Positions 3,259-55,127 of a DNA stretch of 64,000 nucleotides are shown piece after piece; position 1 is the first letter of the stretch; each line of letters starts with the position of its first letter. Below the pieces are notes generated by a model. That model had not been told where the DNA came from. It worked only from the letters and a program-made list of their open reading frames with translations, and did not search any database. This DNA comes from Octopus sinensis (lineage: Eukaryota). The translations under genes and the position numbers were made by a program. The stretch lies in the NCBI RefSeq assembly GCF_006345805.1, contig NC_042997.1:85560001-85624000 (forward strand). Direction: 5' to 3'.

Positions 3259-4192
3259 TAATGGACTTTCTCATCAAAGACAACGTATGAGCATTCAGCT
3301 TTTTGGCAAATGACCTGTACAAATGATTTATTTATAGTTTCTTTCCATTGTACACCTATCAACATTTTTGTAAATAAAAAAACAGAAAGGAGAAAGAAAA
3401 TAAGAAAAATGCTTTGTAATGAAATTTCAATAAGTTGACCACATTAAATTGAAAAGAAACTTCTCTCTCTCTCTCCTTCTCTGTATGTATGTATCTATTT
3501 ATCTATCTACCCTTTTCCATCCTTTATTATTATTTTTTCTCCTCTTTCTTGATTGCCCTGAAACCTCTCTCTCTGTCTATCCCCCCTTTGATTTTCTTTC
3601 TCTTTCTCTCAACCTTTTTCCAAAGCCACAGAAACAATATTCTCCTCTTCTAAACAAAGTAAAAAAGCATCCAATTCATATAAATGAACACGTTCTGTTT
3701 TTACCATTTTTATTCTGATTTTGTCTTGATGAGTTTGAAAAACCAATGGAAGCGCTAATAAAGGATTATCCAAAATTCTAACTGCTTTCTTTTTCTCAAT
3801 ATATATATATACGTATGTATGTACATGTGTACGTATGTATGCAATGGACTTCTTTCAGTCTCCATCTCCCAAATCCAATCACAGGGTTGTGACTACACTG
3901 GGTACTACTGTAGAAGACACTTATCCATGGTTCCATGCTGTGGGACTGAACTCAGAACCATGTGGCTGGAAAGCAAACTTCTTACCACACAGCCACACCT
4001 ATTTTTACATATAAAAGATTTTAACGATAAATTTCTGTTGAAAGTAAGATGTATGTTATGTCATCACAGAAAAGGAAATCTTGTTATTTGTTACAAGAAT
4101 AGCCTTGTGTTTGTTTACTAGGTGACAGCTTATAGATTTCTGTTTAATTTTTGTTTTTGTTTTTCTTTCCGTTGTTCTTGCTTGTTTCATAG

Positions 4193-4249
4193 GAATTATT
4201 GGATGACATTGGAAGTGAAGAACTATCTAATGAGAGTCATGTTGTGTGA
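4193..4249 (+). CDS. Candidate terminal coding exon of an unidentified host gene (ELLDDIGSEELSNESHVV*)
   Basis: Long pyrimidine tract 4141-4190 ends in CATAG. The phase-0 frame is open to TGA and is followed by non-repetitive AT-rich sequence with AATAAA motifs. No upstream exon is visible. Confidence 0.35.
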   Translation, partial: ELLDDIGSEELSNESHVV

Positions 4250-5191
4250 TCTGTAACACAAAAAAAAATCCCAAAAAGACAGACTGGATAAAACCAGAAA
4301 AGAATATTATATGTTATGTTAGAAATACCAAAATGTAGAAGAAAATAAAAATAAAACAAAACAAAACAAAGAAAGAATATTCTAATTACACTAACTTTGG
4401 TTATTCTTTGGTATTCTTGGAGCTATGATGGGATGTTATGGAAATTATGGCTTTTACGACAATATATTCCCATCTGACTTTAATGTAAGCTATACTTTTT
4501 GTTTTTGTTCTTTGTAGCTTTTTGTCTTGCAGTTTATAATTAAATTACAGTGCCATCATTCTGAATTTGCAATCGATATTTCTGAAAGAAGATGTCATGA
4601 ACACGCTAATGTAATTTGAAGTAAATTGCTATGGAGGTACAAACAAAACTTGGTAAATGTACACAATGAATGATGGAGTAGGTTTAAAATTATTTCAGTG
4701 ACTTCATTTCATTATAGTGTTCACTTTGTGTGGGGATGGAGAGGATGCATGTGTGTGCATGTGTTTGTGTGTGCATATGTGTGTATTTGTGTGTATGTAT
4801 GTGTGCTTTTGTGTGAGAGTGTGTGTGTGTGTTTATTTATTTATTTCTATTTTCATTTTTTGACATAATTCTATTTTCAGTAGTACAATAATAGTAGACA
4901 AAATAATAGAATTAATGGTAAAAATAAGTCTTTGAGGATAGTGGAATGAAAGGTAGATTTCCAAAGGGAGCAAATAAATAAAGCAATAAAATGCTTATAG
5001 AATTTTTGCAGAACTAATTCTTTGAAGAATTTGCTCATTTTCAGAAGATAGGCAGAAAATTTTAGATTACAAATGTATTCTCATATACTTACCTGTCTTT
5101 TTTTCTTGCCAGCCTGCTTGTCTGTCAGTCTTTCTGTCTGTCTGTCTGTCTCTCTGTCTATCTATCTATCGATCGATCAATCTGTGTGACT

Positions 5192-5228
<37 letters not shown>

Positions 5229-5338
5229 AATGCATGTATGTTTGTATAAAAATATGGTATATTTATGTATATATTTGTGTGTGTGGTGTGTGTATACATA
5301 CATTTATATAAATATTTATGTATGTATATCTATCTATC

Positions 5339-5401
<63 letters not shown>

Positions 5402-5579
5402 CTATATATAGTCATATACCAATTTACCAATATATGTATTCACTTAAAGTTGTTCCCAAATGAATGGACCCACCTCACCCCACTTTCAAAACATCAAAGA
5501 TAGAGAAAGCTCTTTTCTTGGAGAATATATTTCCCATAAGTATTGCATGATGTATGTATTTAAAGAAATGTGAAGAATC

Positions 5580-5614
<35 letters not shown>

Positions 5615-6194
5615 AAAGGAAATCACAGTCTCAGTACTGAATGGTTAAGTTATGGTAAGTTTGTTTTTGTTTAGCTTCCAGTGAGCTCTGAATGATCTCA
5701 CCTAAGATCAACGACATTCCAGCCATGACCATTCCTAAGACTTTTGGAAACATTATTGTGTTGTAAGGCACATATTGCTCTTACTTCAAGATGCAATCTA
5801 AACTTTGGGTTACAGGAACCAGCAAAACTTAGCAGACATATCCTCATGTGCCCTCTATCCTAGCTTCTGGCTTTTTTAGGACTACTCCCCCTAAAATGAT
5901 CCCCAAAATATGTCTGTCAAGGTCGATGCCCCAGCAAAGAAAGAGACTGTTTGAGCTACCTGCTTCTTGATGTGACGTCACTTCCCCTCGCTTCCTGTCC
6001 CCTTGTCCTTGTCCACACCTTCATTCCTCCACAACCACTAATTTGTCCTTTCTCTTTTAAAACAGTAGTGTTTATGTGAGGAAGATTTGGCTATTGTTGA
6101 AGCTCTTTCTTGCTGATTTTTATTGTATATGGAAAACAAAAGTGGTTAAGGGAATTAGACAGTTAGACAACCACAACCAGATAATATGGATGGT

Positions 6195-7320
6195 GCTGTC
6201 TTTTCATCCGATGTCACTTTCAAACATGTTTTCATCCATGTCTTTTGGTCCGATGTCTTCTTGTCCGATGATTTTTTTGTCCAACAACTTTTTGTCCAAT
6301 TTTAAATAAACTCTTTGGAAAACATAGTGAAATATCTCTAATGATATATTCACAGAACTATAACTATAACTGTTAACAGTTTTACTTTCACTTTTTCCAT
6401 CTCTCTCTTAAATATGATGCTGTGTATAGAGAGTGCTGCAAACTTAATGCATATCCACTTGAACTCATGGCAGATTTCAAAGTTACAGTTCACGAGGCAT
6501 ATAATTCATCATTCTTTAATTCATCTATCATGGCATGTTTGTTTCATTTGAGCCAATCAGTATTTTGAAAAATTACAGATTTAGGCCTCAAAGAACAATA
6601 CAATAAATTCTGTCTTAAAATTTGGTGTTTTTGAAGCATTAGCCTGCCTACCCATTGGGAGTGTGAAAGAGGCCTATGAAGAATTAATAGACAATGAAGA
6701 AATACCTGTTCAATTCATTGCTTACTTCAACTTGACTTACATAGGCATTGTGAGAGGACATGGTGCTAGACGAAGGAGAAAACCACCTACATTCCTGATA
6801 GCTGTATGGAATGTTAATCAGTAAATTCTTCAAGATCTTCCCAGAACAAATATTGCTGCTGAGGGGTTCAATTCTGTGATAAAGCATTCAGCAGGTGGAG
6901 CACATTTGAATTTTTGGAAATTAATCAAAACTCTAAGGAAGAGGAAGAGTTCATTAAAGTAAAGTGACTCAAATTCTTCGATGAGACCCATCAGTTTCAT
7001 GAACACAATATCAAAGAATAATTGAACACCTCATAAGATTGGTCATTGAATACGGGTCAACAAGAAAAACTGATATTTTGAAAAGTGTGGCATATAATTT
7101 GCATCAATTTTAAGTGATCATAATAAATCATTAGTTATATCTTATTACTTTTTTAAAATGACATTTTTTAAATACATTTTTCCATAATAAATTCTCAATG
7201 ATTATTTGACTTTGATGTTCTCTTGTTTTCTAAAGAGTTTATTTAGAATTGAACAAAAGTCAATGGACAAAAAAATCATCAGACAAAAAGACATCGGACC
7301 AAAAGACATGGATGAAAAGA
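6195..7320 (+). mobile_element. Internally deleted MULE (Mutator/Phantom-like) DNA transposon
   Basis: TIRs of about 95 bp (6229-6324 vs 7224-7318) built of TTTT(C/G)(A/G)TCC-like repeats. Internal fragments ACLFHLSQSVF, ALACLP, YFNLTYIG, PPTFLIAVWNV and DLPRTNIAAEGFNS match MULE transposase C-terminal motifs. Confidence 0.85.
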
Positions 7321-7795
7321 GGAGCGTTTTATATTCTTTGATTCCTTTACTAGCTTAATCCAGTGGACAGCAGCACTGCTGTGGCACCACCTTCAGGGAT
7401 TTTGTCAATTATGTCAGTCACAATACATTGTCAGGCACTTATTTTATCCATCTCAGAAATAGGAGACACAAATATCATCATCATCAGCATCATCATCATC
7501 GTCGTCGTCGTCATCATCATCATCATCATCATCATTTTAACATCCACTTTTCTATGCTCACAGAGGTCAGACTGAATAATTTGAAGTGGATTTTTTGATT
7601 GGATGCCCTTCCTGTCACCAACCTCCACTTGTTTCCAAGAAGGTGATGCTTCCATGTGACTAAACATAGCTCAGAAGATTGGAAATGAAGGACACTGCTA
7701 ACATGACAGTAACACATGCTTGCCACTCTCATGTGACGTCAAGGCAAGGACACACACAAACACACACACATGTATATATGCAATATATATATATA

Positions 7796-8930
7796 AAGAA
7801 AATGCACACAGTTTACATAGTTTTAATATATTTTAAATAAAAGAGAATTGTGGTTGTCAACCGGTTTCACTTTCCCTAATCATTATTGTAATTTCATATT
7901 TTCTTAAGAAGGTTTTAGCCCATGTTCTTGTATGAAAGTCTTTGAATGAACCAACAGGTAGAAAAATCTAAGGGGAAGTAACTGGTGATAGTTACTACTT
8001 GGGACAATGGAGGTAATTAGTGATAGTTACAACTTGGGTCAGTGGAGGTAACTTCCCATTCCTGGAGCAGGATAAATGAACATACAAAAAGTCATAAGAT
8101 AAAGTAGTGAGATGAAATATGTACAGTGCTGGATATGTGATCATGAATTAAAATATATACTGAGACCAAAGTTGGTTATGCATTCATATTTAGGTGTGTT
8201 CTGCATTTATCAATAAATAAATTTTCTTTATTTAAAGATTCTTGTACAGATGGGGAAAACTGTGAAATTTGGTTGGTGATTCCCTGCATATCTCTCTATG
8301 TGTTCATGCAAAGGTATTTGTCTATACTTTGGGAAATGGATCTGTTGTTTATGTAGTGTGGTTCTCCATCTAAGAGCCATACTTGTCTGTCCTATATAGT
8401 TATATCTACAACCTGAACAAGTTCTAACATAGATTAAATTCTCAGATGCACAAGTGAAATCGGTCTTAATTGTGAACCTCTCTTCTTGTTTGAATTGGAA
8501 TTCCGAGCCTTCCAGTAGGTTGGGGCATGTCCCAGAGCTTGGACATCCACATTTTTTAACCATTGGTTTCACGATTGCTGTGTAAAGCTTTGCATTTGTC
8601 AGAAGTCTTTTCAGCAATTTGGGCTGCATTTTACATTTGATGAATTTATGTTTTCAGAATGTTGTTCATTTTTGGATCCCTTGTGAGTCTTGGTAGATTT
8701 TGTACAATAGTGTTGTATGCATCATTGTTTCTAGGGTTGTAAGTTGATATATACGGTAGTATTTTGAGATGAGGTGTAGTGTTTCATTTTGTTCCCCTTA
8801 CTGATTTAGTGCCTATTTTCTTGGCACATTTAATTCCAGCATCTATAAATGAGGGTGGATAGTGTCTCTCTGTTAGTGTTGTTCTGAGGTCTTGAAGATG
8901 AAGGTCCCGAGTATTTCCCTCAGACATCAT
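7796..8930 (-). mobile_element. 5'-truncated Penelope-like retroelement (Neptune-type): RT C-terminus, GIY-YIG endonuclease and 3' pseudo-LTR
   Basis: ORF 8228-8629 has NLIYVRTCSGCRYNYIGQT (GIY-YIG) preceded by a Cys-rich linker KKCGCPSSGTCP. Upstream are LTERHYPPSFI and LPYISTYNP. (TA)n flanks both sides. Confidence 0.85.
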
Positions 8931-9082
8931 ATATGTGTATATATATATATATATGTGGGGGGGGGGGGCTTGGTCATTAGAGTCTGACAAGTCACCCAGA
9001 GAGCTAAGTGCTTTATGGATGCAAAACCATTGGTCACTCTATGACCAGACATGTATTTAGCTGCAGGCAGACAGACAGCTAA

Positions 9083-9121
<39 letters not shown>

Positions 9122-9751
9122 TATGAAGGGCTTCTTTCAGTCTCTCTCTGCCAAATCTTTTCTCAAGGCTTTGGCTGGCCTAGAGCTACAGAAGAAGGCA
9201 CTGAACTTGAAAGCCATGTGGTTGGAAAACAAACTTCTTACCATGCAGCCATACTTTCCTCAAAATTATTCTTTAGACACTGAAAGTGTAGTAGCATGTT
9301 ATCTCTCATGAATCACCACTAGTGTAGCTGAATTTTGTGCTGAAGTTTGTGGATACTCTGATTTTAATGTCTTATTCCCCACAGAAAACCCAACATAATG
9401 TCCATCAAAATTGCAACACTAAAAATACTAAATGGGGCAGATCAGCCTACATGTCTCTTCTTTTTTAGCTATGCTGCTGTGGGCCACCACGAGTGGCATA
9501 ACCAATTCTGTTGTTCAGTTTAGGTTTCTTCGCATCAATATCCATAGGAGAATGTTGACAAGGAGATTGTTCCCAAAGGTTACAGTTCTGGGGATGGAAA
9601 AATTTGATGGGGAAAGTGTTTATGAGAGAATTTGAGGGTCGATCCATTGAAATCAATGAAAATTAAAAAGAGAATTTTAACAAGAGCACCTAAAAAGACA
9701 ACGTTTATATCAAAAGAGCCTTAATATCTTTCACAACTATGGAAAAAAGAG

Positions 9752-10270
9752 GGTGATGAAGATGATGGTGATGATGGTGATGTGATGGTGATGATGATGG
9801 TGGTGGTGGTGGTGGTGGTGGTGGTGGTGGTGGTGGCAGCAGAGGTGGAGGTGGTGGCAGCAGTAGCAATGGTAGTGGTGATGAGGATGAGGATGATGAT
9901 GATAATGGTGGTGGTGGTGGTGATGGTGTTGATGGTGGTGGTGGTGTTGGTGGTGGTGATGATGATGATGATGGTGGTGGTGGTCATCATGGTTGCAGTG
10001 GTGGTGGTAGCAGTGATGGTGGTGGTGGTGGTGGTGGTGGTCATAGTGGTTGCAGTGGTGGTAGTGATGGTGGTAGTGGCTGTGGTCATGATGGTGATGA
10101 TGATAATGGTGGTGGTGATGGCGTTTGTGTTGGTAGTGGAGGTCATCATCATCATCATTCCCATTATCATCATCATCAATGTCATAATCATCAGCATCAT
10201 TATTACCATCACTACCATCAACATTATCATCAACAACCACAATATTTTCTAGAATAAAACAAAGCACACA

Positions 10271-10301
<31 letters not shown>

Positions 10302-10842
10302 TACACAGATATCACCCGTTACAAATAACCAAAGACTCTTTGATAAAGAAATTCCGGAAGCTGTCATGTAGAAAATAAAACAAACTCAACAATAAAAAAC
10401 AAAAACGAGGTTTCATACAAACACAAATATAGACAATGCAACACTAAACACAGTGTTAGCAATCATCATCATCATTACCTGAACTATCATCATGATGAAC
10501 ATCATAACAATGTTATCATCATCATCATCATCGTTATCATGAAGGCTTCATCAACATTTTAAGTCATCCTTATCATGGTTGTCACGATCACATTCATCAT
10601 CATCGTCATCGTCATCATCGTCTTTGTCATCACTATCGTCATCATCATCAATGTTGCCATCATAGTTGTCGTTATCATCGTCATCACCATCATCATTATC
10701 ATCATCAATGTCACCATCATTTTTGTCGTTGCCATCATCATCATCATCATCATCATTGTCATCACTATCATCACCATCATCATCATCATCATCATCATCA
10801 TTGTCATCACTATCATCATCATCATCATCGTCGCCACCATTG

Positions 10843-10882
<40 letters not shown>

Positions 10883-11775: not shown

Positions 11776-11911
11776 TGATGCCACTAAAATCAAGGTACTC
11801 AATGGTTCCGGACCAAAACCGAAATGTTCTATCGACTGAGAGACTAAGCAATATGTTTTATTGAATGATATGTTTCAATGGTCTTTAGATCTATAACCCA
11901 TAACAGAACAT

Positions 11912-11949
<38 letters not shown>

Positions 11950-25277: not shown

Positions 25278-25457
25278 GTTCCACATTCCTCAAAACCATG
25301 GAACTCCCAAACCAGAGTTTCACTACTGGATACAGTTATGGTTTTAAACTGTATCCAGTAGTGAAACTCTGGTTTGGGAGTTCCATGGTTTTGAGGAATG
25401 TGGAACCAATAGTCACTACTGATCTGGAATCAGTAGTGACTTCACTACTGATTCCAG
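25278..25457. repeat. Perfect inverted repeat (60-bp arms, 9-nt loop) followed by two overlapping small palindromes
   Basis: 25278-25337 is the exact reverse complement of 25347-25406. Hairpins with 13-bp and 16-bp arms lie at 25411-25457. Confidence 0.95.
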
Positions 25458-25495: not shown

Positions 25496-26684
25496 TTATG
25501 AACCATTTTGTTGCATAATGCATCTCCATCTTCCCTTTAACTTGAAAATACCCTCTTCCCAGAATTGAGGTGGTTTCATGGCAAAGAATTCATCAAGGTA
25601 TCTTTTTACATCATCCAAGGAACTGAAATTTTTACCATTAAGACTATTCTGCAGAGACCTGAATAAGTGGAAATCCGAAGGAACAATATCTGGTGAATAT
25701 AGAGGATGGGGTAACATATCCCAGCCGAGCTGCAGCAATTTTTGTCTAGTTCCCAAAGAAATGTGTGGTCTTGCATTATCATGCTGGAAAACAACACCCT
25801 TCCTGTTGGCCAATTCTGGACATTTCTCTGGAATTGCTGCTTTTAACTCGTTCAGTTGTGTGCAGTATTTCTCAGAATTAATTGTCTGGTTACTTGGGAG
25901 AAGCTCATAGTACAGAATTCCTTTCCAATTCCACCAGACACAAAGCAAGACTTTTTAGGGTGAAGACCCACTTTTGGGATGGCTAAGGGTGGCTCATGTC
26001 ACTTACTCCAGGTTCACTTTCTCTGAACATTTTGGTAGATAATCCATTTCTCATCACCTGTCAGAATTTACTTTAAAAAAGGCACATTTTCATTCCATTT
26101 ATAAAGCGAATCACAGATGGAAATGCGATCCAAAAGGTTCTTCTCACTCAACACATGTGGTACCCAAACAGCGCAGTGATTTGTGTACCCAAGCTTTACA
26201 GGTGCTCATGAACGATGGATTTTGACAGGTTGAGGCTTTCTGCCAATTCTTGGGTTGTGCATTGTGGGTTATTCTCAATTTAATGACTTGATTTGATCAG
26301 GATGGTCTGCCTGATCGCTCTTTATCAATAAGGCTACAATCTCTAGCTTGGAACCTTGCAAACCACTTCCGTACAGTTCCTTCGGATAAAGAAACATCTA
26401 TGTAAACTGTGCATATTTCTTTGGTTGCTTGTAAGGCATTTTTCCACTTACAGAAAAAGAAAAGCATCAAGTGCCAAAAATGAACTTTCTTATCTTCCAT
26501 TTTAAAGGGTTACAGAATTAACACCTGTTATATGAACATAAACATTCTTCCACGAAAAGATAGCTTAAACTGTGCTCTAAATGGAGGTGTAGTCAAATCT
26601 TATTTTAGGAACTCAACCATGTTCTAAAATAAGTCAAAAGGTAAGCTGCTATAAATTGGCATGAACTTTCCAGACAACCCAATA
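25496..26684 (-). mobile_element. Mariner (DD34D, Mos1/Hsmar1-like) transposase pseudogene with one TIR retained
   Basis: LCVWWNWKGILYYELLP, FQHDNARPH and HPLYSPDIVPSDFHLFRSL; N-terminal HTH TVRKWFARF...ERSGRP. TIR ...CAGACAACCCAA plus TA ends at 26684. Confidence 0.92.
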
Positions 26685-33893: not shown

Positions 33894-35184
33894 CGAGGGG
33901 CGTTCAATAAGTAATGCCTCTGACCCACTTGCCTTTGTTTGATCTAGCTGGAATTTTGCATGTGCAATTATTGATATCTCTATAGATTAAGTGGCAAATT
34001 ACAGCTACGAACTAATTGAGGTTTCTGATTTACAGGTGTTTGAAATGAGTCAAGTGGGAAATGGAGCATGTTGAGTGTCAGGCAGTGATCCGGTTTTTGT
34101 ATTTGAAATGACGCACACCACAGGAGACTTTTAATGAAATGAAAGTAACTTATGGTGATGATGCCCCATCATATGACCTTGTAAAACGCTGGCATCGTGA
34201 ATTCAAACATGGTCGGAACTCTGTGGAAACAGCTCCCAGATCTGGTCGCACCCCTTCTGCCATTGATGAGGCATCTGTCCGTCAAGTTGAGGCTGCCATT
34301 TTGGAAGATCGACGCATAACAATTCGCCAAATAGCCCATGAGGTCAAGATTAGTACCAGGTCTGTGGAAACTATCATTCATGACCATTTGCATATGCAAA
34401 AGGTGTCTGCCAGATGGATTTCCAGGTTGCTCACACTTTTCCAGAAGCAAGAACGCAAGAATTCCAGAAGCAAGAATTTAGGGATGTGCCAAGAAGATGA
34501 GTCAAAATTTTTCAAAAGACTGATTACACAGGATGAGACCTGGGTCCATCACTATGATCCAGAGACCAAAGCCCAGTCAATGCAGTGGAAGCACCATGAC
34601 TCACCTCCTCCAAAGAAGGCAAGGGTGCAGCCCTCCGCTGGCAAGGTCATGCTCACAGTCTTCTGGGACCAGGACGGAGTAGTGATGCCAGATTTCCTGG
34701 CAAAGGGTACCACAATTACAGGAGCCTATCATGTTTCACTTTTGAAGAAATTAAGAGAAGCTATCGAAACCAAGAGGCGGGGCAAGATCAGCAAAGGCAT
34801 CCTCCTCCTGCAGGACAACGCTCCGGTCTACAACTCGCGTGTCGCCAGATCAGAAGCACAGGCGTGCGGCTATGAACTCTTCCCCATCCCCCTACTCTCC
34901 TGACCTTGCACCCTCTGATTTTCACCTCTTCCCAGCCATGAAGTTGTTTTTGAAAGTAAAGCATTTCCCAGATGATGCAGCCTTGATTTCTGAAGTCACG
35001 TCGTGGTTGGAGGACCAAGCTGGGGTCTTCTACGAAAACGGTCTCCAGAACTGCATCAAACGATGGGAGAAATGCATACCTCTGGGTTGTTCCTATGTAG
35101 AAAAAGACCAATACCTGTGCCAAGTTTCGTTGCTCTACTGCTATGGGAAGTGGGTCAGGGGCATTACTTATTGAATGCCCCTCG
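33894..35184 (+). mobile_element. Full-length (1291 bp) irritans-subfamily-like mariner with 37-bp TIRs and TA TSD
   Basis: TA|CGAGGGGCGTTCAATAAGTAATGCCTCTGACCCACTT ... AAGTGGGTCAGGGGCATTACTTATTGAATGCCCCTCG|TA, with 2 mismatches between the TIRs. Confidence 0.95.
34061..35111 (+). pseudogene. Mariner DD34D transposase pseudogene
   Basis: ATG at 34061 (MEHVECQAVIRFLYLK*) with premature TGA at 34109. Motifs ITQDETWV, LQDNAP and SPDLAPSDFHLF; frameshift near 34885. Confidence 0.9.
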
Positions 35185-35540: not shown

Positions 35541-35610
<70 letters not shown>

Positions 35611-35712
35611 TGTCGGTAGAACATAAATCTGAAAAAGAAGCACACTCTAAGTTATAGAGCAGTATATAATATAAATAAAGTTAGATAAGGCTGGTTTATG
35701 GTATTACCTTCA

Positions 35713-35860
35713 GTTTCATGTTCATAAAGCACTTAGCATTATAGCTTATCATCAAATCCAAAAACTTGTAGGCTTAAGGCCACTCTAGAGAGGCCTTAAG
35801 CCAACAGGTTTTGGGATCTGATGATATGCTGTAAAGCTAAGCACTATATGAATGTGAAAC
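35713..35860. repeat. Loop-less 148-bp imperfect palindrome with hammerhead-like CUGAUGA...GAAA in each arm
   Basis: Centred on CTCTAGAG (35783-35790). The arms differ partly by CpG-decay pairs (TG vs CA). Confidence 0.8.
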
Positions 35861-36406
35861 CCAGGAAAAAGCAGGTTAGTTCACTGGTGTAATCGGTAAC
35901 ACACTTAGTTGTGTAAACAAAAGGGATGTGCATTCAAGTCCCACGCATATGGGAAAAACCTACGTTTTTCTGTTGAAGGCTTATATGCCCCATTATTAGA
36001 CTATTTTCCTTAGTCATTGTGCGGTGATCGCTATAAGCTTTAAGCTTATAAAATACTATTATTATTATTTACAGAATTGTAAAACTCAACACTGCTTGAC
36101 AAAACCATTCACAGTGAATACACACACACACCGAAACGTAGAGTAGATGAAATTAAGGCGACTGAAGAAAGGGAATTTTCCTTGTTTTGTATGTCCTGTA
36201 CTCTATTTTTCGTTGTTTAAAAAAATGTCCATTTCCTTGGTTTTGTGTTTATGTTTTCGTTTCTCATTGTGTTCGACGTTTTTTTGGTGTCCTGTACCCA
36301 TATATGCATGTATATATATATGTAGAGGTAGGTACGTACATATATGTATGTATATATGCATATGTTTTATTTATTTTAAATTTATTATATATATATATAT
36401 ATATAT

Positions 36407-36439
<33 letters not shown>

Positions 36440-36689
36440 CATACATATCGTTAATTAAATATATTCAATGAGAATGCAATATAAGTACTCTTGGTAGGGA
36501 AATGTGTAAAACATTAAAGGTATTTAGACATTTAATAATAGCGATTATTATTATATTATGAAATAAAAGCAGGAAAATTACAGCGAAAAATCATCACAGA
36601 AGATATAAATCCAAAATAATATTGTATTAATAGATAGATGTATAAATATATGAAGCATGATAATTTAAAAAGTTTAAAAGTTTAAAATA

Positions 36690-36778
36690 TCTTACGATCA
36701 TTTCATGAATGTATTACCCTTAGGAATGGAATTTAAAATTGATAATCAGTATTAGGTAATACATCCGCTCATCAGAGA
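36690..36778 (-). ncRNA. Type I hammerhead-ribozyme motif (PLE pseudo-LTR type)
   Basis: Minus strand: UCU-CUGAUGA-GCGGAUGUAUUACC...GGUAAUACAUUCAU-GAAA-UGAUCG-UA-AGA. Core boxes are intact and stem II pairs at 13 of 14 positions. Confidence 0.7.
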
Positions 36779-36865
36779 GAAAGAGGGTGAATTTCTGTGT
36801 AGTCAATTGAACGCTATTTAAAAATATATGTAAAAGATGTTGTTTAAAAAGTCTTATTTTATAAT

Positions 36866-41976: not shown

Positions 41977-44146
41977 CAAAAGTTGTTGTTGACATCATAA
42001 GAATTAAGAAACTTCAAAAATGTGAAATAATCCCTTGTAGGATCAGTGAATCTTAAAGCAAATAAACCTATAAACAGCATGTAAATGTACCCTTTGAACA
42101 GAAAAAAAATCAATGACTTCTCATGGGATGTGAACTCATATCTCCTGAAAATGTGACAGATGTTCTACTATGTTTGCAGAAGATATGGGTTTATGTCCCC
42201 TCAGACAGCCTTCAAATTTTTGTATTGAAAGGGATTTTAACCCAATATTTACACACTGTTATTTACAATAGTTGACCAAGATACCTGGCAACTTACTGGA
42301 CTCCAGAAGGCCTGTCCTCCACAGCAGAAGTGTTAAGCTCACATGCCCTGGTGAAGAGGATTGGCCTACAAGAATTCTGTGCCAGTACCTCATAAAAAGC
42401 ACTTGTGCTGGTGCCACATAAGAGTGCTCATACTGATGTTATGTTAAAAGCACCCAGCACACACAGAAAAGTGGTTGGTGTTAGGAAGGGCATCCAGCCA
42501 TAGAAACCATGCCAAATCAGACTGGAACCTGGTGCAGCTCTTCAGCCTACCAGTTCTAGTCGAACCATCCAACTCATGCCAGCATGTAAAAGAGACATTA
42601 AAAAATGATGATGATCATGTTGCTTCACGATACATTGTTCCCGAAAAAGAATGAAAGATATCGTTTTATGACATTAGTATGTATGTATAAATCAATAACG
42701 ATATTACATTTAAAAAGAAAAAAATGAATTATATGGAAATATTATTTAATATGTTCTTTTCATTCATAAGAAAAAGACCTCTCACAATAATAATAAAGAA
42801 AAAATTATAAACCCTGAGCTGTTCTCTTCCCTTAAAAGAAAGCTTCACCCTTTCTTTCATTTCTTACTAAACTCTCTTTCTCTCCCTCTCTTACTCTGAA
42901 AGCAAGTGTAGGTAGCAGCATCAAGAGTCACCAGTCAAATTTCCCATGAGTGAAGTAACATTTCCCAGTTGAAACTGAAAGTTAACTTTGGGTTGAAAAA
43001 TCATTTGCAAACTTATGAAGCTTAAGTAATTTCTCACAGAAAGAAAAGGAAACAATAAATAAACATTGTGATGTTCAACTCAAAATCATAATTCCAACTA
43101 CTAGAACTGACAAAATATTTTGGATTGCATTATTAATGGAGTACACTACTACAAGTACAAAAAAAAAACTGTAAAAGTGTTAATGGAATTTGTGATATCA
43201 TTTACACAAAAGACATTTTACACTATGTTCATCATCATCATTCTCATCATCATCATCATCATCATCATCATTATTTAACGTCCATTGTCCATTCTGATAT
43301 GAGTTGGATGATTTGTCCAGAGCTGGTAAGCTGGGGAGCTGCACCAGACTCCATTAGACATCCTTCCTAACACCAACCACTTTACAGAGTGTGCTGGGTA
43401 CTTTTACGTGGCACTACACAGGCACAATTATGTGACACCACACAGGCGCTTTTACATGATGCCACACATGCACTTTTACACGGTCTTAAGATTTCTGCTG
43501 CAGAGTTCAGTTCTTCTTGAGTACAGCAAGGCACCAGGTATCTCAGTCTTTGTCATCTCACCTTAGCTCTTCACTACTTCATTCCATGTCTTCCTGGGTT
43601 TCTCACTTTACTGTTCAATAACACAAAAACAGATTCAGAAATAGAGTGTATATAGAAGCAGATCTACAGATACAAGTGACAAAGTTCCAAATACTGTAAC
43701 CCATGATCAGCAGCGAACTCAGTTATGTAACTTTTAGTCTTATGAAGGTCAGCTGAAAAGTTGTTGGGTCAAGGTTGTTTCATTTGCAGGGAAGGTGATG
43801 GCCTTGGGAAAGGAACAATGCAGTTATTAATAAGAAAATTTGAAATTAATATCTGCAAGATTTCCCAGCTCTAGCATCATAAGAAAAAGGAGGTAGTCAG
43901 AAATTTGGATAATTATTTATTTCATCTCATTTGAATCTCTGAAATAAGATGAGAGCACTAAATAAATTATTGTCCAAAATTCTGACTACCTCCTTTTTCT
44001 TTATATATGGAATCTGTACAACACTTTCAACAATCTATACAAATACATACATACATACATACATACATACATACATACATGCATACATACATACATACAA
44101 CATACATACATACTACATACATACATACAATACATACATACATATA

Positions 44147-44328: not shown

Positions 44329-45239
44329 CGGCATCATACACTTTGGTCCCTTATATGTAAGCATACATTTTTCTAAACCTTATTTGACTCTTTTTCTGTC
44401 TACTTGAGTAATAAAGGTAGAATGAGGTATTTTTGCCTCTTGGCTGAAATAGCTGTAAGTTATTTTCCCAATTTATATTCATGTGTGTTATTTTGTAATA
44501 ATTACTGGTATCCTTATATATTAATATATTTTATATCTTATAAGTAAAGCATAATATGTTATACATGTATGTATATCCTTGAATTGTCAGTTTAGTAAAT
44601 AAATAAATATGTTAACATAATATAATGTCTAAAAGTTGATGAACCACCTATTGATCCCCTCCATTTTCTTATTGCTATATATATATATATATATTTAGAG
44701 AGGGAGAGAGAGGGAGAAAGAGGCAGAAAGAGAAGAATAGATGCAGTACATGACTGGTTCATTATCATTTCATCAAAGAATGAAAGTCAAAGCTGATCTT
44801 AGCAGGATTTGAATTCAGAACTCAAAGAGGCTGGAACAAATACCATAAGAAGCTTCTAAAGCTTCACTGATTCAGCCAACTGGTTACCTTATTTTAATAA
44901 TAACTCATCTGAAAATTATAGATGCCTAAGATAATCTTTTATTAACATTTTAACACATTACCTTGCATCTAATAAGTTTAAAACTTCCTGTATAGCTTAA
45001 GAAATAATTTTCATATTTCTTGTCCGTATATGACATTGGTGCATAAGATTTTTTTTTTTTAGATGTAATTCCAGCTTCCAGTCTGTAGTAAATTGATGTT
45101 GAATTATTATAACTGCCTTCCTCCTTATTTACAATTTTTCATTATCATTTTGCTTTGTAGTTTTTATTTGTATACCAAGAGCAATGTTCTTCCTAAAAAG
45201 TTGTATCAAATAGGGAACTGTTAGTATTTTCTGATGACA

Positions 45240-46265: not shown

Positions 46266-46315
<50 letters not shown>

Positions 46316-46371: not shown

Positions 46372-46432
<61 letters not shown>

Positions 46433-46515: not shown

Positions 46516-47239
46516 TCTCATCATTGTTGTTATCATCATCATTTAATGTCCATCTTCCATGCTGGTATGGGTTGGACAGCCTGAGAGGAGCTATCCGGCC
46601 AGAAAGCTGCATCAGACTCCAGTTGTCTGTTTTGACCTAGTTTCTATGGCTGAATACCCTTCCTAATGTCAGCCACTTTACAGATTGCTCTAGGTGCATT
46701 TTTTTAAATGGCACCAGCCTAAGCACTATCTGTGGCACCAGCATGGATGCTTTTTATGTGATACCAGCATGATTACTTTTTATGGATGAGAAGGTTATCT
46801 TTGCCAGGTGTTAGCTACATATATCCTCATCAGATAATTTCTTAAAAAGCCTTAGGGCTGAAACATGTAAAAGAAGAAAAAAATTGGTTCTGTGGAATTT
46901 GGTTTTAAATCCTTGTAAGCATCACTGTATTTTATCTGATATTACTATAATATTAAAGCAGCAAGCTAGCAGAATTGTTAGCATGCCGGGCAAAATGCTT
47001 AGTGTCATATCCTCCATCTTTATCTTCTGAGTTCAAATTCCACTAAGATTGACTTTGCCCTTCATCCTTTCAGGGTTGATTAATCGAATTAACTCCTCTG
47101 CTGAAATTGCTGGCCTTGGACCAAAATTTGAAACTTATATTACTATATCACTAGAAGCCTGTAAGGGAGCACCTGTGTAATTTCTTGATCCACAAGTAAT
47201 AACAGCAAAATGAAATCACTTTTGAATCACAGTCCCACT

Positions 47240-47457
47240 CTTTTACTCTCTCTTTACTTTTTTACTTGTTTCAGCCATTTGACTGTGGCCATGCTGGAGC
47301 ACCGCCTTTAGTCAAGCAAATCAACCCCAGGACTTATTCTTTGTAAGCCTAGTACTTATTCTATCAGTCTCTTTTGTCGAACCACTAAGTTACAGGAGCG
47401 TAAACACACCAGCATCAGTTGTCAAGCAATGTTGGGGGTACAAACACAAACACATAA

Positions 47458-47490
<33 letters not shown>

Positions 47491-47689
47491 AACACACACA
47501 CACATATATATATATATACATATATACGATGGGCTTCTTTCAGCTTCCGTCTACCAAGTCCACTCACAAGGCTTTGGTCAGCCCAAGGCTATAGTAGAAG
47601 ACACTTGCCCAAGGTGCCATCTAGTGGGAATTAACCCAGAACCATGTGGTTGGTAAGCAAGCTACTTACCACACAGCCACTCCTGTGCC
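47240..47689 (-). mobile_element. SINE family A, full length
   Basis: Reverse-complement match to family A. SINE B lies immediately upstream at 46955-47135 (plus). Confidence 0.88.
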
Positions 47690-48299
47690 ACTGTCTTAAA
47701 TATGTGATGATGATGATTCTTTCAGGTTCAGATGTAAGACTTTTTCTAGCGTTCTTCAACATTTAGCATTAGAATGTTCTGAAACACATCCAACTTTGAA
47801 TATATATATGTGTGTCTGTATATGCCTGTGTTTATGTGTATATATGTAGGCAAGTATGTATTTGTATGTACACTGTTCAGACACACACACACACACACAT
47901 AATCTCCCCACCCACCCACACATGTACACATGTACACACACATACACACTCAAGTGACATGGTAACCTCACTAGTGCCAGTGACATGGAAAAAGCACCCA
48001 GTGCACTTTGTAAAGTGGTTGACATTAAGTAGGACATCCAGGCATAGAAACCATGCCAAAATAGACAATTGAGCTTGATGCAGCCCTGCAACTTGTGGGT
48101 TCCTTGTCAAACCATCCTTAACCAGACATTAAATGATGATGATATGGCTGTGCTATTGGGAAGTTAATTTCACAACCCCATGGTTTCATATTTGATACTA
48201 CCACATGAGACCTTGGGCAAGTCCCTTCAATTATAACCTAACATTGACCAATGCTTTGTGAGTAAAATTCAGTAAACTAAAACTGTAAAAAGGTACAGA

Positions 48300-50490
48300 A
48301 GCCCAATATATCTCAATATTTTGTATGACACAAGGACCTAGCTCTCAGTAATTTGTAAACTTTATACTAGCAGTGTTTGGACAGTAGTTATGGAATATTT
48401 TCCACAGTGTACAAATGATATAGCCCTTTTGGTGACATTGGAGAGAACAGTTTCAGCTTGTTGAGGCAATCCCATTAATCAAGGCCTGTTATAAAATATT
48501 TTTCTTCTGTGTTCATTTCTGGGCATGCCTCAGGTCTCATAATGTTTTGTCATATATAGGGAGACCACAGTGGGTAGTATTATTCAAGGTAAGGTCTAAT
48601 AAACATAGAGAAAAGAAAGATGATGGCATCAGGGTCTCTGGACCAAATACTTCTAAGAACCCAGGAGCACATTCTGTGGGCTATATCATCTTTATTGTTA
48701 ATATGTGTATTCCTAGTTAGGTTGGTGTCCATATTTAACAGTTTCGCCTAAGACTCTGATATTATTTGATGCTACAAGAAGCTCTTCTGGGAGAAGAGAA
48801 TGTGGCTGTTTAAATGTATTCTTTCTCCAAAGTGGATGAACTTAAATTTCCCCTCATCTTGCAGCATGTCCCCTCACCCTCCATCAAAGTACAGTATGCA
48901 GATCAGACTGGAGTTCTCTTTGGTCACATTCTTCTTTGCTAATTTTCTGGAGCTTAGAGTCATCTTTCCTACATTTCATGACGTTTTCAACATCATATTA
49001 TTTCCTACTTGTTTCGGTCATTAGCGGGGCATCATTCTAAAGAATTTTTAACCAAATAAATCAAACCCAGTACTTATTTTTGATAAGCCTGGTACTTATT
49101 CTATTGGTATCTTTTGCCAAACCACTAAGTTACAGTGTACGTAAATACACCAACACTAGTTGTCAAGTGATGGGCGAAAGCACAGACAAAAAGACACACA
49201 CACACATACACACAATAAGCTTCTTTCAGTTTTCATCAACCAAATCCACTCACAAGGCTTTGGTTGGCCCAAGGCTATAGTAGCAAACACTTACCCAATG
49301 TGTCATGCAGTGGGAGTGAACCCAGAACCATGTGATTGGGAAACAAACTTCTTACCACTCAGTCACACCTGCGCTTGTAACTAATAAACAGAAGTGAACC
49401 CAACTCAATACCCTGAAGGACTTTTGCTGGACTTGAGCAAATTTTGTCAATTGCAACATGTTAGATTCTGCTAGTTAGAAAACATTTAATCCACTGCAGT
49501 AGCTTACTACATACTCCAGTGTCCGGTAATTCCTTCAGTAGAATGCTGTGGTCAACTCTATCAAAAGTTTTACTGGAGTCAAAATAAACAACACTTGTAT
49601 TAGTGTATTCACCCAGAGCATTTAGAATATCATCAATGTGGTGTAGAAGCTATTTTAGGCAGTCTCTGCTATCATGAAAAAAATGCTGTTAGGTTCTAAG
49701 AAATGATTTTTTTTTCTCTACAGGAAGGCAGTTTTTTTTTATCTGACCACCTCCTCAAATACTTTAATAGCACTGTGAAACAAAATTAAAATATTTTTTT
49801 GTCTTTGGTCAGTATGTGTTATTTCCTATTTGCTTCTATTTTGAAATCAAAGGAAATGACTACTGTTTCTTTCAAACTTTGCTTTTGTGACCTAGATATC
49901 AATGTTTTGAAATTGACTTGTTTTCCATTACATTTCAGACAGATTCAATACTGAGTTACTGAAGCAGAAATATCATTATAGCAAATATTCTGCTCAATAT
50001 GATAAATTTGCTTGTCAGTTACTTGACTATAACCATCTGAGCATGTCCTTTAGTGGCTGACAATATGTACAATATGGACAGGAGTAGTTAGCCATGTGCT
50101 GAGAGGGATTCTTTGGGGTTTGAATAAATGTAACAAAAGCAAAGTTTGAAGGAAATATTAGCCATTTCCCATACTTTCTAGGGGTAAGCAAATAGGAGAT
50201 AGAAACAGTTGCTACTAAAGGACAAAAATTGTGTTACACAGTATAATATGAGAGATTAGTGAAATCAGATGATAATTCCCTGTGAGTGATTTATTTCCCT
50301 TTTTAAAAACTAGGATAACAGACTGTGACAGAAAATACAAAAGTTTAAAAACCTAACTCAAGTGATTTCCTCCAGAGATTAGCAAGAGATGTAAGGTGAT
50401 GCTTGCGCTCATTCAGGGAACAAACTAGAGGAACATGAGTAAATATTATCCAGTACTGTGTATAAAACTTTCAATCTTGGGTGACTTTTG
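48300..50490 (-). mobile_element. CR1-clade LINE RT relic, interrupted by SINE A (49005-49372) and a MITE (49773-50241)
   Basis: Reverse-complement fragments RDCLK.LLHHIDDIL, VVYFDSSKTFDRVDHSILL, FIRPYLEY.PLWSPY and LKLFS. Confidence 0.75.
49773..50241. mobile_element. MITE with about 115-bp degenerate TIRs (CTGTG...CACAG-TA), Tc1/mariner-type
   Basis: CTTTCAAACTTTGCTTTTGTGAC pairs with GTAACAAAAGCAAAGTTTGAAGG, and TCCTATTTGCTT pairs with AAGCAAATAGGA. Confidence 0.7.
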
Positions 50491-50588
50491 TAACATTTTG
50501 TTGACTATAGCCCTGGGCTGACTGAAGTCCTATAAATGGATTTGGTAGATATGGAAGCTTAAGGAAGTTCATTGTACACACACACACA

Positions 50589-50643
<55 letters not shown>

Positions 50644-50922
50644 GCATGTATGTATGTATGTATTTATGTCTCTATTTGTGTATCTTCCTATGTTTATGTT
50701 TGTCACCCACTATCATTTGACAACTGGTGTTGGTTTATTTAGGTCCCTGTAACTTAGCTGCTTTACAAAAAGAGACCAATAGAATAAGTAACAGGCTTAA
50801 AAATAAAATTAAGTACTGGGGGCAATTTGTTTGACTAAACACTTTAAGGCAATACCCCAGCATGGCTGCAGTCCATTCACTGAAACAAGTAAAAAGTAAA
50901 AGATATATATATATATGTATAT

Positions 50923-51152
50923 ATACAAAATTAAGAGGAATGACCGCTTAAGTGGACACCTAATATGCTAAACATAGACGTCAAATCAGCATTACCACGA
51001 AGAATGTGTTCTGAAAAAATATCTCAGCAAAACGCCATAATATAAAATTGAGCAAGACAAATGAAACACATTCTTCATGGTAATGGCGATTTGACATCTA
51101 TGTTTAGCATATTAGGTATCCACTTTAGTGGTCATTCCTTTTAATCTTGTAT
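50923..51152. repeat. Fold-back repeat with about 88-bp arms abutting (TA)n; probable inverted PLE pseudo-LTR
   Basis: 50923-51010 matches the reverse complement of 51065-51152 at roughly 90% identity by eye. Confidence 0.8.
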
Positions 51153-51355
51153 GTAACACACAACTTTTGATCTTTGGATTTTTTTAAATATGCTAAGCCA
51201 CTGGTTTTAATTGATTAATATCAATTTCTACCCTTATTATTTAGTATCATCATCATCATCATTATCATCATCATTTAACGTCCGCTTTCCATGCTAGCAT
51301 GGGTTGGATGGTTCAACTGGGGTCTGGGGAGCCCGAAGACTGCACCAGGCCAGTC

Positions 51356-51408
<53 letters not shown>

Positions 51409-52529
51409 CATAGATACACACATTCATATACATACGTCTATATTTATATTTATAGATGTGTTGTTATTGCATGGTACATGTGTGTCTGCATGTGTGTCTG
51501 TAGCTGTGTATATGAGCCTGTGTGTGTGTGTGCATGTGTGTGTGTGCATGTGTTTGTATTAAATAAATCTATGCAAAGCATATACAACATCTGTTTGAAC
51601 TGGCATTGAAATATATTCCATTGAACTGATCAATGATTTTCTGGTTAACTTCTATCTTCTTTCTTAGCCTCTATGCTGCTGACATACATAGAAAACCTGG
51701 TCTGCTTTTTATTTCAATCTGTTTCTTGTCAATTGTATTTGCTATCATCATTTATCTTCCACTTACAGAATAGAACATCAGAGAGAAATGACACAAAAAA
51801 ACATTAGCAATTCTATAGTAGACGTTGTTGCTATAGTTGTTGCCGCTATTGTTGTCATAGTTTTTTATGTTGTTGTTGTTTTGTTGGTTTTTTTATGTTT
51901 TTTTTTTGCTTTCCTGTTGGTGTTGTTGTTGATAAGTCCTTCCTAAGTTGGGACTGATTGAACAAACCTGCAATAAAAGTACTGAAGACACAGACCAGCT
52001 CATCTTTTTTTTTTATGTTATTTTTTCAGACAGTTTATATCTATGCTAATATTATCCAATGTGTGTGTCCCTGTGGTTTTGAAGATAGTAAGGAAGTTAT
52101 TTGAGGTTGATTTAACTGCTCATACTAGCAAGTCAAGTGACTACATAGAGACGTTTTTGTCAGCTCTCACATATGTTAGTAGACAACTAAGATGGTTTAG
52201 ACATATAAATGGAAGCTTCTGGCTGAGTAATATTTTATATTATATAGATAATAACTATTTTTGTTATAATAAAAATAATTAATTCTTTTTATTGGCCACA
52301 AGGGCTAATATAAATCAAAACATTAAAGGACAACACAAGACGATCAACCAAGGGTTTTGCAAAAAAGGTCTGTGTAAACATTTCATAACAAAAACAGCAA
52401 TATAACAAGTAAAAACTCCCAGTAGAGGGAGGCACTTTGAAGGTTACTCATGGGAAAACCCATAAAAGCCACGGGTGCCTGGTCAACAGACGAGAACCTT
52501 TTTTCCTTTCATACCTTTATAATAATAAT

Positions 52530-53270
52530 AATTCTTTCTACTATAGGCACAAGGCCTGAAATTTGGAAGAGCGGACTAGTTGATTACATCGACCCCAGTG
52601 TTTTACTGGTACTTAATTTATTGATGCCAAAAGGATGGAAGATAAAGTCGACCTTGGCATAATTTGAACTCAGAATGTAAAGATGGATGAAATACCATGA
52701 AGCATTTCACCTAGCATGCTAACAATTCTGCCAGCTCACTGCCTTCTGTCATAATAATAATAATCCTTTCTTCTATAGGTACAAGGTCTGGTATTTGGCG
52801 GAGGGGACTAGTCAATTACATCGACCCCAGTGTTTCACTGGTATTTCATTTATCGACCCTGAAATGATGAAAGGAATTCAAATTTTGGCACAATTTTGGG
52901 GAGGGGATAAGTTCATTACATCAACCCCAGTGTTCAGTTTGGTATTTATTTAATCAACACTGAAGGGATGAAAGGCAAAAATCAACCTTGGCAGAATTTG
53001 AACTCAGAATGTAAAGAAGGACAAACTGCTGCTAAGCTCTTTGTCTGGCATGCTAACCATTCTATCAGCTTGCTGCCTTAATAATGATATTGGCTTCTGA
53101 TTTAGGCACAAGCCCAGCAGCTTTGAGAGTAGGGAATAAGTTGATAGTGTTGACCTCAGTACTTAACTGGTATTTTATTTTATTGACCCCTGAAAGAATG
53201 AAAAGCAAAATCAATCTCTGAAGGATTTAAACTCGGATATTATCAAACATTTTGTCTGGCATTTTAATGG
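52530..53270 (-). mobile_element. Tandem cluster of about 4-5 Meta-domain SINE B copies, mostly separated by TAATAAT spacers
   Basis: Repeated GACCCCAGTG...GGATGAAAGGCAAAG...AATTTGAACTCAGAA units. Confidence 0.8.
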
Positions 53271-53929
53271 TTCTGCCACTGCCTTCCAGAGAGACAGATG
53301 AAGGGAAGCTTACAAAGACAGGTTTCAAAACATGATGGAGCATACAAAGAAATTGAAGATTGTAGGTTTTTCCCATATGTATATATGTATATATATATAT
53401 ATATATTTACACAGACAGACAGCAACACACACACACACACACATGCATACATAAACAACAAGCTTCCCGCAGTTTCTGTCTACCAAACTCACTTGTAAGA
53501 CATCAGTCAGCCTAGAGCTATAGCAAAAGATGTTTGCACAGTAAGACTGAACCTCCGATAAGAGCTAACAAGTTAGTTTTTATTCTAATATGTATATATT
53601 TTTTATACTATATATAAAGGATATTGATTTATTGAAAAAATATTATTTTATTATTGAATTTTAGATTTTTCTAACCTGTTAAATAAGAAAAAAATGAGAT
53701 TAAGAAGTATACAACATTTACAAATATCCGATATGGTCCTAGAGAGGACTGCTATAGAAGGCCAGTGAAAAAAATCTACAGATCAATGATCACTATTTTT
53801 ATCAAAATATGCTACTAGTTTCAACTGTTTCAACCAATTTAGTCATGAAATAAGAGAAAGGAAAAATAAAATGAAATAGATTAAAATTATAGTTTATTAT
53901 ATTAGCTTTGCAATCTTACTACATTCTGA

Positions 53930-54465
53930 AGACGTCAAGCTGGCAAAAATGTTAACATGCCGGGCGAAATACTTAGCAGTATTTCGTCTATCTTTATGTT
54001 CTGAGTTCAAATTCCGCCAAGATCGACTTTACTTTTCATCCTCTTGGGGTCAATAAATTAAATACCAATTGTGTACAGAGGTCAGTCTAACCAACTGGCC
54101 CCCACCCCAAAATCTTCAGGCCTTGTGCCTAGAGTAGAAAAGAATCATACTACATTCTGAATTCAAATTCCACTGAGGTCAACTTTGCCTTTCATCCTTT
54201 CGGGTTCAGTACTGGGGTTGATGTCATCAACTTACTCCCTCTCTCAAAATTGCTGGCCTCGTGCAAAAATTTGAAAATAGCAGTGGGCTGGCAGAATTGT
54301 TAACACGCTGACTAAAATGCTTAGCAGTATTTCACCCGTCGTTATGTTCTGAGTTCAAATTCTGCTGAAGTCAACTTTGCCTTGCATCCCTTTCAGGACG
54401 ATGTAATCAATTAGTCCCCTCCCACCAAATTTCAGGCCTGGTGCCTTTCATAGAAAGGATTATAT
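53930..54465 (+). mobile_element. Tandem cluster of 3 Meta-domain SINE B copies
   Basis: Three occurrences of GA(G/A)TTCAAATTC...CTTT(C/G)ATCC. Confidence 0.8.
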
Positions 54466-54890
54466 TAGTTTTGTAAGAGAAACATGCAACTGACTGACTA
54501 AAGATTTGTCATGTGAAATGCAAGCAAGATTATTATTCAGCCAGCTGGCTAATCACAACACCAGTGATTTTTCAATCACTGTTTTTCTACTTCAGTGATG
54601 ATGGATTTTGTCTTAACTAGTGTGTACATGCTATTGAAATAGTCCAAAGAGGCAGAAGTGCACAGTCTACCATTCTCAACGAAGCTGCTGAACAAATTTC
54701 ATTTGCCGCTGAGATATTAAATACATCTATCCATTTGTCTATACGTCTGTCTATATCAATATATATTCTGTATGTATATAGGTTTGGTGATGCAAACAGA
54801 AAATAAAACCCAAAACGAGTATAAATGTTTTTTATTAATAATTGGCAGAGTAACTCAAGGGCCAAGAGATTATTAATAAAAAATATGTAC

Positions 54891-54922
<32 letters not shown>

Positions 54923-55092
54923 GGAGAGGGAGAGACAAACAGAGAGTAACATTTTCTCCAGGTTTGTCTTTCTACAAATGGTATATATATATAGTTAATC
55001 CAAACATGAAAGCACAAAAAAAACACAACAACGCGAGGACGTGGAACAAATATAGTATTATTGGACGCTCAGGAAAGAAGGAAAGAAGGAGG

Positions 55093-55127
55093 GTTTAACG
55101 TTTAGAGCGGAGCTCTTCATCGGAAAC
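55093..55127 (-). ncRNA. Minimal hammerhead-ribozyme relic in a PLE-type short repeat (about 55000-55203)
   Basis: Minus strand: GUUU-CCGAUGA-A-GAGC UCC GCUC-UAAA-CGU-U-AAAC. Stems I and II pair, G12 is changed to U, and stem III is the palindrome ACGU. Confidence 0.6.

Follow-up and report, generated by a model that had tools for sequence, protein, structure and literature searches.

The window analysed here is a stretch of 64,000 nucleotides (nt) from Octopus sinensis (G000:C1:85560001-85624000), an animal whose 2.72 Gb genome is AT-rich and microsatellite-rich. A first-pass annotation had marked eight sites in it, most of them beside TA or CA repeats, as whole or partial type I hammerhead ribozyme cores, had assigned them to several Penelope-like element (PLE) lineages or non-autonomous derivatives targeting TA microsatellites, and had suggested that their differing palindromic stem III words form a family-specific dimerization code. 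Each of the named words is present in the window where it had been placed. Six of the sites, 55098 (family A), 7860 (B), 3751 (C), 36693 (D), 44449 (E) and 35713–35860 (G), belong to repeat families with complete type I motifs in their sister copies. The site at 36136 (F) belongs to a family with a permuted motif, and 46863 is a short repeat tail. We put the probability at roughly 0.7 that, as their sequences suggest, these sites are the decayed 3′ ends of seven families (six type I, F permuted, predicted to be self-cutting) and one SINE-like (short interspersed element-like) tail, with stem III words that drift.

Within the window, the bare motif of GAAA, palindrome and H is weak, poorly discriminating evidence: it has 80 matches against 53.7 ± 8.4 in 60 local shuffles, an excess of only about 1.5-fold, and CUGANGA...GAAA has 9 against 6.5 ± 2.2. 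None of the named sites passes a full type I descriptor as an intact hammerhead; the sole match in the window, at 53846 on the minus strand, is not a named site (shuffles, 0.2). Rfam gave no hammerhead among the matches listed for the window (150 of 191), and none at gathering score in 10 loci with sister copies. Because the words alone prove little, each of the eight sites was used as a genome query, and 11–29 sister loci per site were aligned. Candidate copies at first look numbered from at least 280 to at least 2,175 for seven sites, and at least 12 for 46863.

Pattern counts in the genome, compared with reversed-pattern controls, were 13,562 versus 127, 16,047 versus 353 and 6,122 versus 1,481, an excess of 45- to 100-fold for the first two. 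When 337 loci (1.07 Mb, a set enriched by the search) were scanned de novo, 119 matches in 22 clusters emerged, versus 1–5 in six shuffles. The family alignments, this genome excess and compensatory changes refute, for seven of the eight sites, the proposal that AT-rich repeat DNA gives rise to the motifs by chance. Such an origin would fit the small excess of the bare motif and the failure of every named window copy with the descriptor, and it holds for 46863; as an account of the whole set it is extremely improbable.

At 46863, 11 sister loci have in common only a short stem-loop tail, with differing sequence upstream, and seven related tails lie within the window. C(C/U)GANGA occurs within 60 nt upstream of 0 of 67 such tails in the loci, and the 11 sister loci contain no CUGANGA. 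We thus rejected the site as a hammerhead, the CUGANGA strand and stem I being absent; its ACAUGU, annotated as part of a core, belongs to no ribozyme. The tail is presumably a SINE-like 3′ end.

Type I families and Penelope-like elements

The type I core and stems I–III are present in the majority of sister copies of families A–E and G, and the six window sites are mutated or truncated copies of these families. To this extent the annotated type I cores stand, whereas 36136 is permuted and 46863 has no core. According to the family alignments the core is canonical in D, E and G and variant in A, B and C, that of C being written CUUGACGA, with one U extra. A CUGA form of the family A core is likewise abundant in the genome, and the A unit measures about 450–560 nt. 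Family D has a stem II arm of 64 nt (about 15 bp and an inner loop), and its window copy is the closest to intact, with two C-to-U changes that turn pairs into G.U. The other window copies are damaged more heavily: G12 is U in A; 11 nt are deleted in B, including the 5′ strand of stem I; C has GGAA in place of GAAA and a broken stem II; E keeps the 3′ half of a 97-nt stem II arm and lacks CUGANGA; and in G the cut-site strand is missing or decayed. Stem III of family G is an odd palindrome, ACCCAGGGU. The long hairpin annotated as a stem III at 35713–35860 is an inverted duplication of the element (Table 1).

Table 1 Positions of family copies and hammerhead remnants in the window
Feature	Position	Strand	Remarks
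Family C, Penelope-like element 3′ end	3338–3790	+	Ends at (TA)n
Family C hammerhead remnant	3719–3763	+	Core with extra U (CUUGANGA), 5-bp stem II, AGCGCU, predicted cut after A
Family B, Neptune-type Penelope-like element 3′ fragment	7750–8926	-	GIY-YIG reading frame 8228–8653
Family B hammerhead remnant	7856–7884	-	Core AUGAUUA, A3-U8 pair, 2-bp stem II, ACCGGU, predicted cut after C
Family G, two-armed inverted insertion	35584–35870	.	Family stem III ACCCAGGGU, stem I 5–6 bp
Family G hammerhead remnants	35701–35759; 35813–35865	-; +	Plus arm without cut-site strand
Family F, 5′-truncated copy of 836-nt tandem unit without open reading frame	36132–36298	+	GAAA and CUGAAGA blocks 36132–36173
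Family D	36500–36863	-	Type I hammerhead 36690–36777, stem III word ACGAUCGU
Family E, 5′-truncated copy	44394–44697	+	GAAA 44446–44449; family word ACAGCUGU, window copy AUAGCUGU
Short-repeat 3′ stem-loop tail	46848–46873	+	Abundant repeat, not a hammerhead
Family A, young short repeat ending at (TA)n	54981–55212	-	
Family A hammerhead	55093–55127	-	CCGAUGA core, bulged A, 4-bp stems I and II, ACGU, predicted cut after U

Families B and C join to coding sequence. The B motif follows, at a distance of 360 nt, a GIY-YIG frame that carries the Neptune-type cysteine linker (clade label from PMC8557442), an arrangement that bears out the placement of 7860 in a Penelope 3′ end. By eye, the endonuclease is followed by a B-type motif or its decayed remains in about 21 of 30 loci examined. 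In family C, about 1.2 kb of shared untranslated region connects to an endonuclease fragment in locus L330. For copies with the 3′ marker, a TA run follows in 25 of 27 (A), 11 of 14 (B), 9 of 15 (C), 7 of 9 (D) and 9 of 13 (G), far above the 13% of random 30-mers, so that the annotated targeting of TA repeats is borne out in five families. Two others are uninformative: E has a TA run in 0 of 13, with a marker that is not at the end, and F is TA-rich inside its unit. Two-armed inverted insertions, typical of PLEs (PMC8557442), occur in families A, C, D, E, F and G.

A Penelope-related origin is shown for families B and C. For the remaining families it is likely, with PLE machinery indicated by two-armed insertions in A, D, E and G and by TA ends in A, D and G. 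Against it weighs the coding evidence: A, D, E, F and G all came out without a coding link, and in A, D, E and G a profile built from a single Neptune-type lineage matched no sense-strand endonuclease upstream. For family E a GIY-YIG link was considered and rejected, the endonuclease near one copy being antisense and downstream. The annotated set of several distinct PLE lineages or non-autonomous families is supported by the sister-copy alignments, and all seven families would likely have spread into TA repeats by means of Penelope-type enzymes.

Their sequence features place A–E and G in the known PLE type I class (PMC4209133), as members new to it. They have in common with the motifs described in PMC4209133 and PMC6765202 the type I order, a palindromic stem III, a short stem I, the bulged base after A9, a variant 3-8 pair, and an organization into many sequence families per genome, mostly as single truncated copies; the position behind a GIY-YIG frame is a likeness of B and C only. 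Unlike the motifs in the available parts of those two sources, D, E and others have stem II arms of 54–97 nt, B has an A3-U8 pair and C has its extra U (Lunse et al. 2017 may cover these). The CCGA that stands for CUGA in family A is reported in viroid-like RNAs (bioRxiv 10.64898/2026.09.16.752053).

Several further features lie near these copies or resemble them. Another two-armed remnant of family C, absent from the first-pass annotation, is located at 43882–44026. Families G, F and D lie within 1.3 kb of each other (35584–36863), F and D ending from opposite sides at one TA-rich tract (about 36300–36500). Genome-wide, there are many type I families with 30–97 nt stem II arms and 8-nt palindromes (for example L019, L097, L145, L161, L200, L219 and L252); arms of this length mean that short-spacer descriptors would miss these families. 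Single-copy matches in L019, L255, L266 and L063 combine other 3-8 core pairs (U3-A8, G3-C8) with a long stem I. Elsewhere, the window contains mariner-type transposase fragments (PF01359) at 25496–25954 (minus strand) and 34112–35174 (plus strand), a near-perfect inverted repeat of about 95 nt (25296–25392) beside a mariner fragment, and a broken fragment of a non-LTR (non-long terminal repeat) reverse transcriptase at 61392–62804 (plus strand; weak RVT_1 match).

Stem III palindromes within and between families

Apart from decay, the palindrome is fixed within each type I family, the word being kept in 30 of 30 copies of A, 17 of 20 of E, 12 of 25 of B, 9 of 20 of C, 8 of 20 of D and 7 of 25 of G. 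Related clusters change their word by double substitution (ACACGUGU/ACAUAUGU and ACCUAGGU/ACCGGU). In a long-stem-II pattern with four stem III letters left free (the 16,047 matches above), the free tetramer is palindromic in 85 of the first 100 matches listed and takes 10 forms by hand count, these matches being not independent and dominated by two related families. From such sequence comparisons, the stem III palindromes look to be under selection.

By analogy with published PLE hammerheads, the type I families would cut when two copies pair via a palindromic stem III and an intermolecular stem I, and the pairing copies probably lie next to each other in a single tandem or two-armed transcript. 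Stem III is likely held self-complementary by selection as its word drifts from lineage to lineage; under such drift the families would come to be mostly incompatible as a by-product, and words would be reused. Three points weigh against this pairing scheme. One family has a non-palindromic word, ACCGAGGU, in 3 of the 100 matches listed; the eight- and nine-letter words can be modelled as a small stem III within a monomer; and similar invertebrate motifs are described as cutting as monomers (PMC7229834).

The proposal that the palindromes are a selected code, keeping RNAs of different families from activating each other, draws on the same words. The six window families have six of them, as annotated, and none of their 15 pairs is predicted to cross-pair. 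Among 171 pairs of 19 motifs (13 of which come from one copy, with duplex energies that are rough relative values), only 8 share a word, 19 have compatible stems I both ways and only 2 pass both tests. At least 10 different central tetramers occur among the 100 matches listed. Words nevertheless recur in unrelated families: the ACGU pattern (13,562 matches) finds mainly A-like repeats and an unrelated, abundant family with another stem I, the de novo scan has ACCGGU in three clusters and ACAGCUGU in two, and ACGAUCGU is used, among the matches listed, by D and by at least three other stem II types.

Any two differing palindromes, moreover, mismatch automatically. In a modelled double hammerhead the topology would make stem I intermolecular too, and stem I would separate most of the families that share a word; family E and a motif in L102, apparently unrelated, are predicted to be fully compatible. 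Hetero-dimers are mostly predicted to fail because the families have diverged under a self-pairing constraint and because of stem I. The partners of published PLE motifs are believed to lie within tandem copies (PMC6765202), a pairing in cis that needs no discrimination in trans, and therefore no code is needed. We consider a selected code quite unlikely. The predicted specificity of the families is, judging from the sequences, likely a by-product.

The permuted motif of family F

Assignment of family F to hammerhead type I, II or III failed, with CUGANGA located not upstream of GAAA but about 25 nt downstream. The blocks follow the order cut site, GAAA, CUGANGA, which is that of type SGC (PMC10085705). 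Stem I is formed by the strand before CUGAAGA, pairing over 7 bp with the strand after the upstream UH, and stem III by 5 bp between the strand after GAAA and the one preceding that UH. The ACGU at 36136, annotated as a self-paired stem III, is one strand of this long-range helix; the window copy itself has (CA)n in place of the cut-site block and the upstream helices. A scan of six block orders found the S-G-C order in 12 rows from F loci and no order in three shuffles (757 kb). A diverged copy in L165 led to further F subfamilies, and two complementary F patterns have 1,592 + 3,255 = 4,847 exact matches in the genome, versus 1 + 0 for the controls. The unit lacks an open reading frame (ORF) and has a period of 836 nt in L095, tandem matches lying about 830–880 nt apart.

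Of 76 distinct copies with enough flank, 48 were kept by a filter for an upstream GAAGG-like word, and 46 of these were anchored. Stem III takes five fully paired forms in the 46 copies (ACGUG/CAUGU, ACGCG/CGCGU, ACACG/CGUGU, ACGUA/UACGU and ACGCA/UGCGU); pairs 1–5 are paired in 40–45 of them, with swaps at three positions. Pairs 1–5 of stem I are paired in 41–46, and U-A and C-G replace each other at four positions. Position 17 holds C in 19 copies, A in 14 and U in 13, never G. A distal extension of stem III varies by subfamily yet pairs, with a mean longest run of 5.7 within copies versus 4.1 across. Family F thus has a type-SGC-like order with covarying stems I and III. In most subfamilies both strands of the internal loop between stem III and the distal extension are GA-rich; the loop may be a bend by which a single molecule could fold. 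A similar S-G-C-like match, present in 6 of 30 loci (L214, L217, L222, L227, L233 and L236, near 1560–1660), runs antisense within the GIY-YIG frame of one Neptune-type subfamily; we set it aside as likely chance under protein constraint.

A non-catalytic fold, for instance a reverse transcriptase signal merely resembling a hammerhead, would have to bring CUGANGA, GAAA, G10.1-C11.1, A15.1-U16.1 and a non-G position 17 exactly to a three-helix junction. Two of the three junction helices covary and position 17 is without a G in all 46 copies, so we judge such a signal decidedly unlikely.

Modelling suggests that an upstream strand likely forms stem II of F, the core being opened after A9 by two helices that would enter between A9 and G10.1. 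The upstream pairing GAAGG/CCUUC is Watson-Crick at all five positions in 43–46 of the 46 copies. The strand after A9 pairs with upstream CCCCU in 38–45, and a covarying hairpin stands between the two upstream strands. The tails of Naiad_Obim and Naiad_Ovul, two octopus Naiad PLEs, from the supplement of PMC8557442, have by eye the same block order, with stem I CUGCCC/GGGCAG, stem III ACCAU/AUGGU and an upstream stem II GACACC/GGUGUC, and this upstream stem II covaries between F and the Naiad tails. Natural hammerheads accept one extra base after A9 (PMC4209133); we infer that the two helices are a step beyond it.

The strand after A9 can also pair with CUUC over 4 bp in 43–46 of the 46 copies, and a bulged A of the kind this pairing would leave is typical of PLE motifs (PMC4209133). 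F could then be an ordinary type-SGC motif with an unbroken CUGANGA block, its stem II formed by the GGGG after the bulged A. Two of those four pairs, however, are G.U (in 44–45 of 46), against the wholly Watson-Crick upstream strand; the strand after A9 has its own partner in CCCCU; and pairing of the strand after A9 comes to only 2 bp in the Naiad tails, against 6 bp upstream. An assembly of two molecules is favoured by the distal stem III extension, which runs directly into stem I and would need a sharp bend in one molecule, and the 836-nt tandem units supply a partner. Either of these alternatives to the open core is, in our estimate, rather unlikely.

The open core has evidence against it as well. 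The F patterns fix CUUCGAAAC and CUGANGAAG, and only 48 of 76 copies passed the GAAGG-like filter, so that conservation of stem II and of the helix after A9 is partly by construction. Neither helix shows covariation among F copies inside this genome, and copies of one F subfamily are not mutually independent.

With its core open after A9, F is predicted to cleave itself without help from a second molecule, and the cut would define the 5′ end of the RNA copied by a Naiad-type enzyme. Copy start points bear on this prediction. When extension is anchored, 15 of 77 copies have their start no more than 15 nt behind the predicted cut, versus 4–6 expected; two of the 15 are internal deletions and 13 remain, and the window's F copy is one of the short starts. 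The excess is modest in pattern-selected copies (start bins of 9, 3, 3 and 1 of 49) and absent by a first, cruder measure confounded by microsatellites (4 of 77). A template beginning at the cut would produce it, as would, less favourably to cleavage, an enzyme stalling at the knot. In L286 and L307, permuted-motif copies have an internal deletion with an edge at the predicted cut site or beside it. Contigs of four sequencing runs, from four organisms, fall on 1490–1760 of L095, and contigs cannot show RNA ends; a search of sequencing runs, with a query containing more downstream flank than unit, found no RNA dataset among the matches listed.

Placement and significance of family F

Family F resembles type SGC (HRIMA-1 and variants, PMC10085705) in its S-G-C order, full core, covarying stems I and III and short linker between stems I and II. 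It differs in the likely upstream strand of stem II, in the two extra helices after A9 and in a distal stem III extension that takes the place of a helix between stems I and II. Non-circular hammerhead permutations have been reported for environmental sequence but for no animal genome, with the CUGANGA block assumed to be unbreakable (PMC10085705). Since the upstream strand pairs better and the unbroken block is thus lacking, we do not file F as a member of type SGC. Type SGC was found in metatranscriptomes and, in the available part of PMC10085705, in no genome of a known organism, whereas F is present in thousands of genomic copies.

Naiad PLEs (PMC8557442) have in common with F a preference for (TA)n and tandem as well as inverted insertions, besides the two octopus tails with an F-type fold. 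The F units differ in being without an ORF: the Naiad ORF, with N-terminal GIY-YIG and C-terminal reverse transcriptase, is absent from the unit, no genome search with a Naiad protein having been made. From the shared fold we infer that F may descend from a Naiad or be mobilized by one. F, and probably A, are also like metazoan non-LTR retrozymes in forming ORF-less, partially tandem units with one hammerhead each (PMC7229834; bioRxiv 10.64898/2026.07.22.740005). Retrozyme units measure 170–400 nt, shorter than those of F and A; unlike retrozymes, F has a motif other than type I and copies that are mostly dispersed and truncated. We found no description of the F fold in a genome in the literature covered, including the available parts of PMC13725137, PMC10162972 and bioRxiv 10.64898/2026.09.16.752053, a scope that leaves aside subscription journals and bioRxiv supplements.

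On the modelled structure, F and its subfamilies are probably an active, non-circularly permuted hammerhead, opened between A9 and G10.1, that would cut without a partner, set the 5′ end of the inserted RNA and be the ribozyme that Naiads were taken to lack. Naiads are reported to be without canonical hammerheads, some being flagged 'HHR_half_core' (PMC8557442), and Naiad_Ovul carries this flag.

The palindromes prove to be the ordinary part of these findings, arguing against a dimerization code, and the permuted motif matters more. If the open core is real, the finding that Naiads have no hammerheads (PMC8557442) would be explained by a split core, present in thousands of animal retroelement copies as well as in Naiad tails. 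Type I–III descriptors and Rfam would then miss whole classes, including the type I motifs with a long stem II. Family F would also offer a short natural RNA for direct tests of the role of ribozymes in PLEs.

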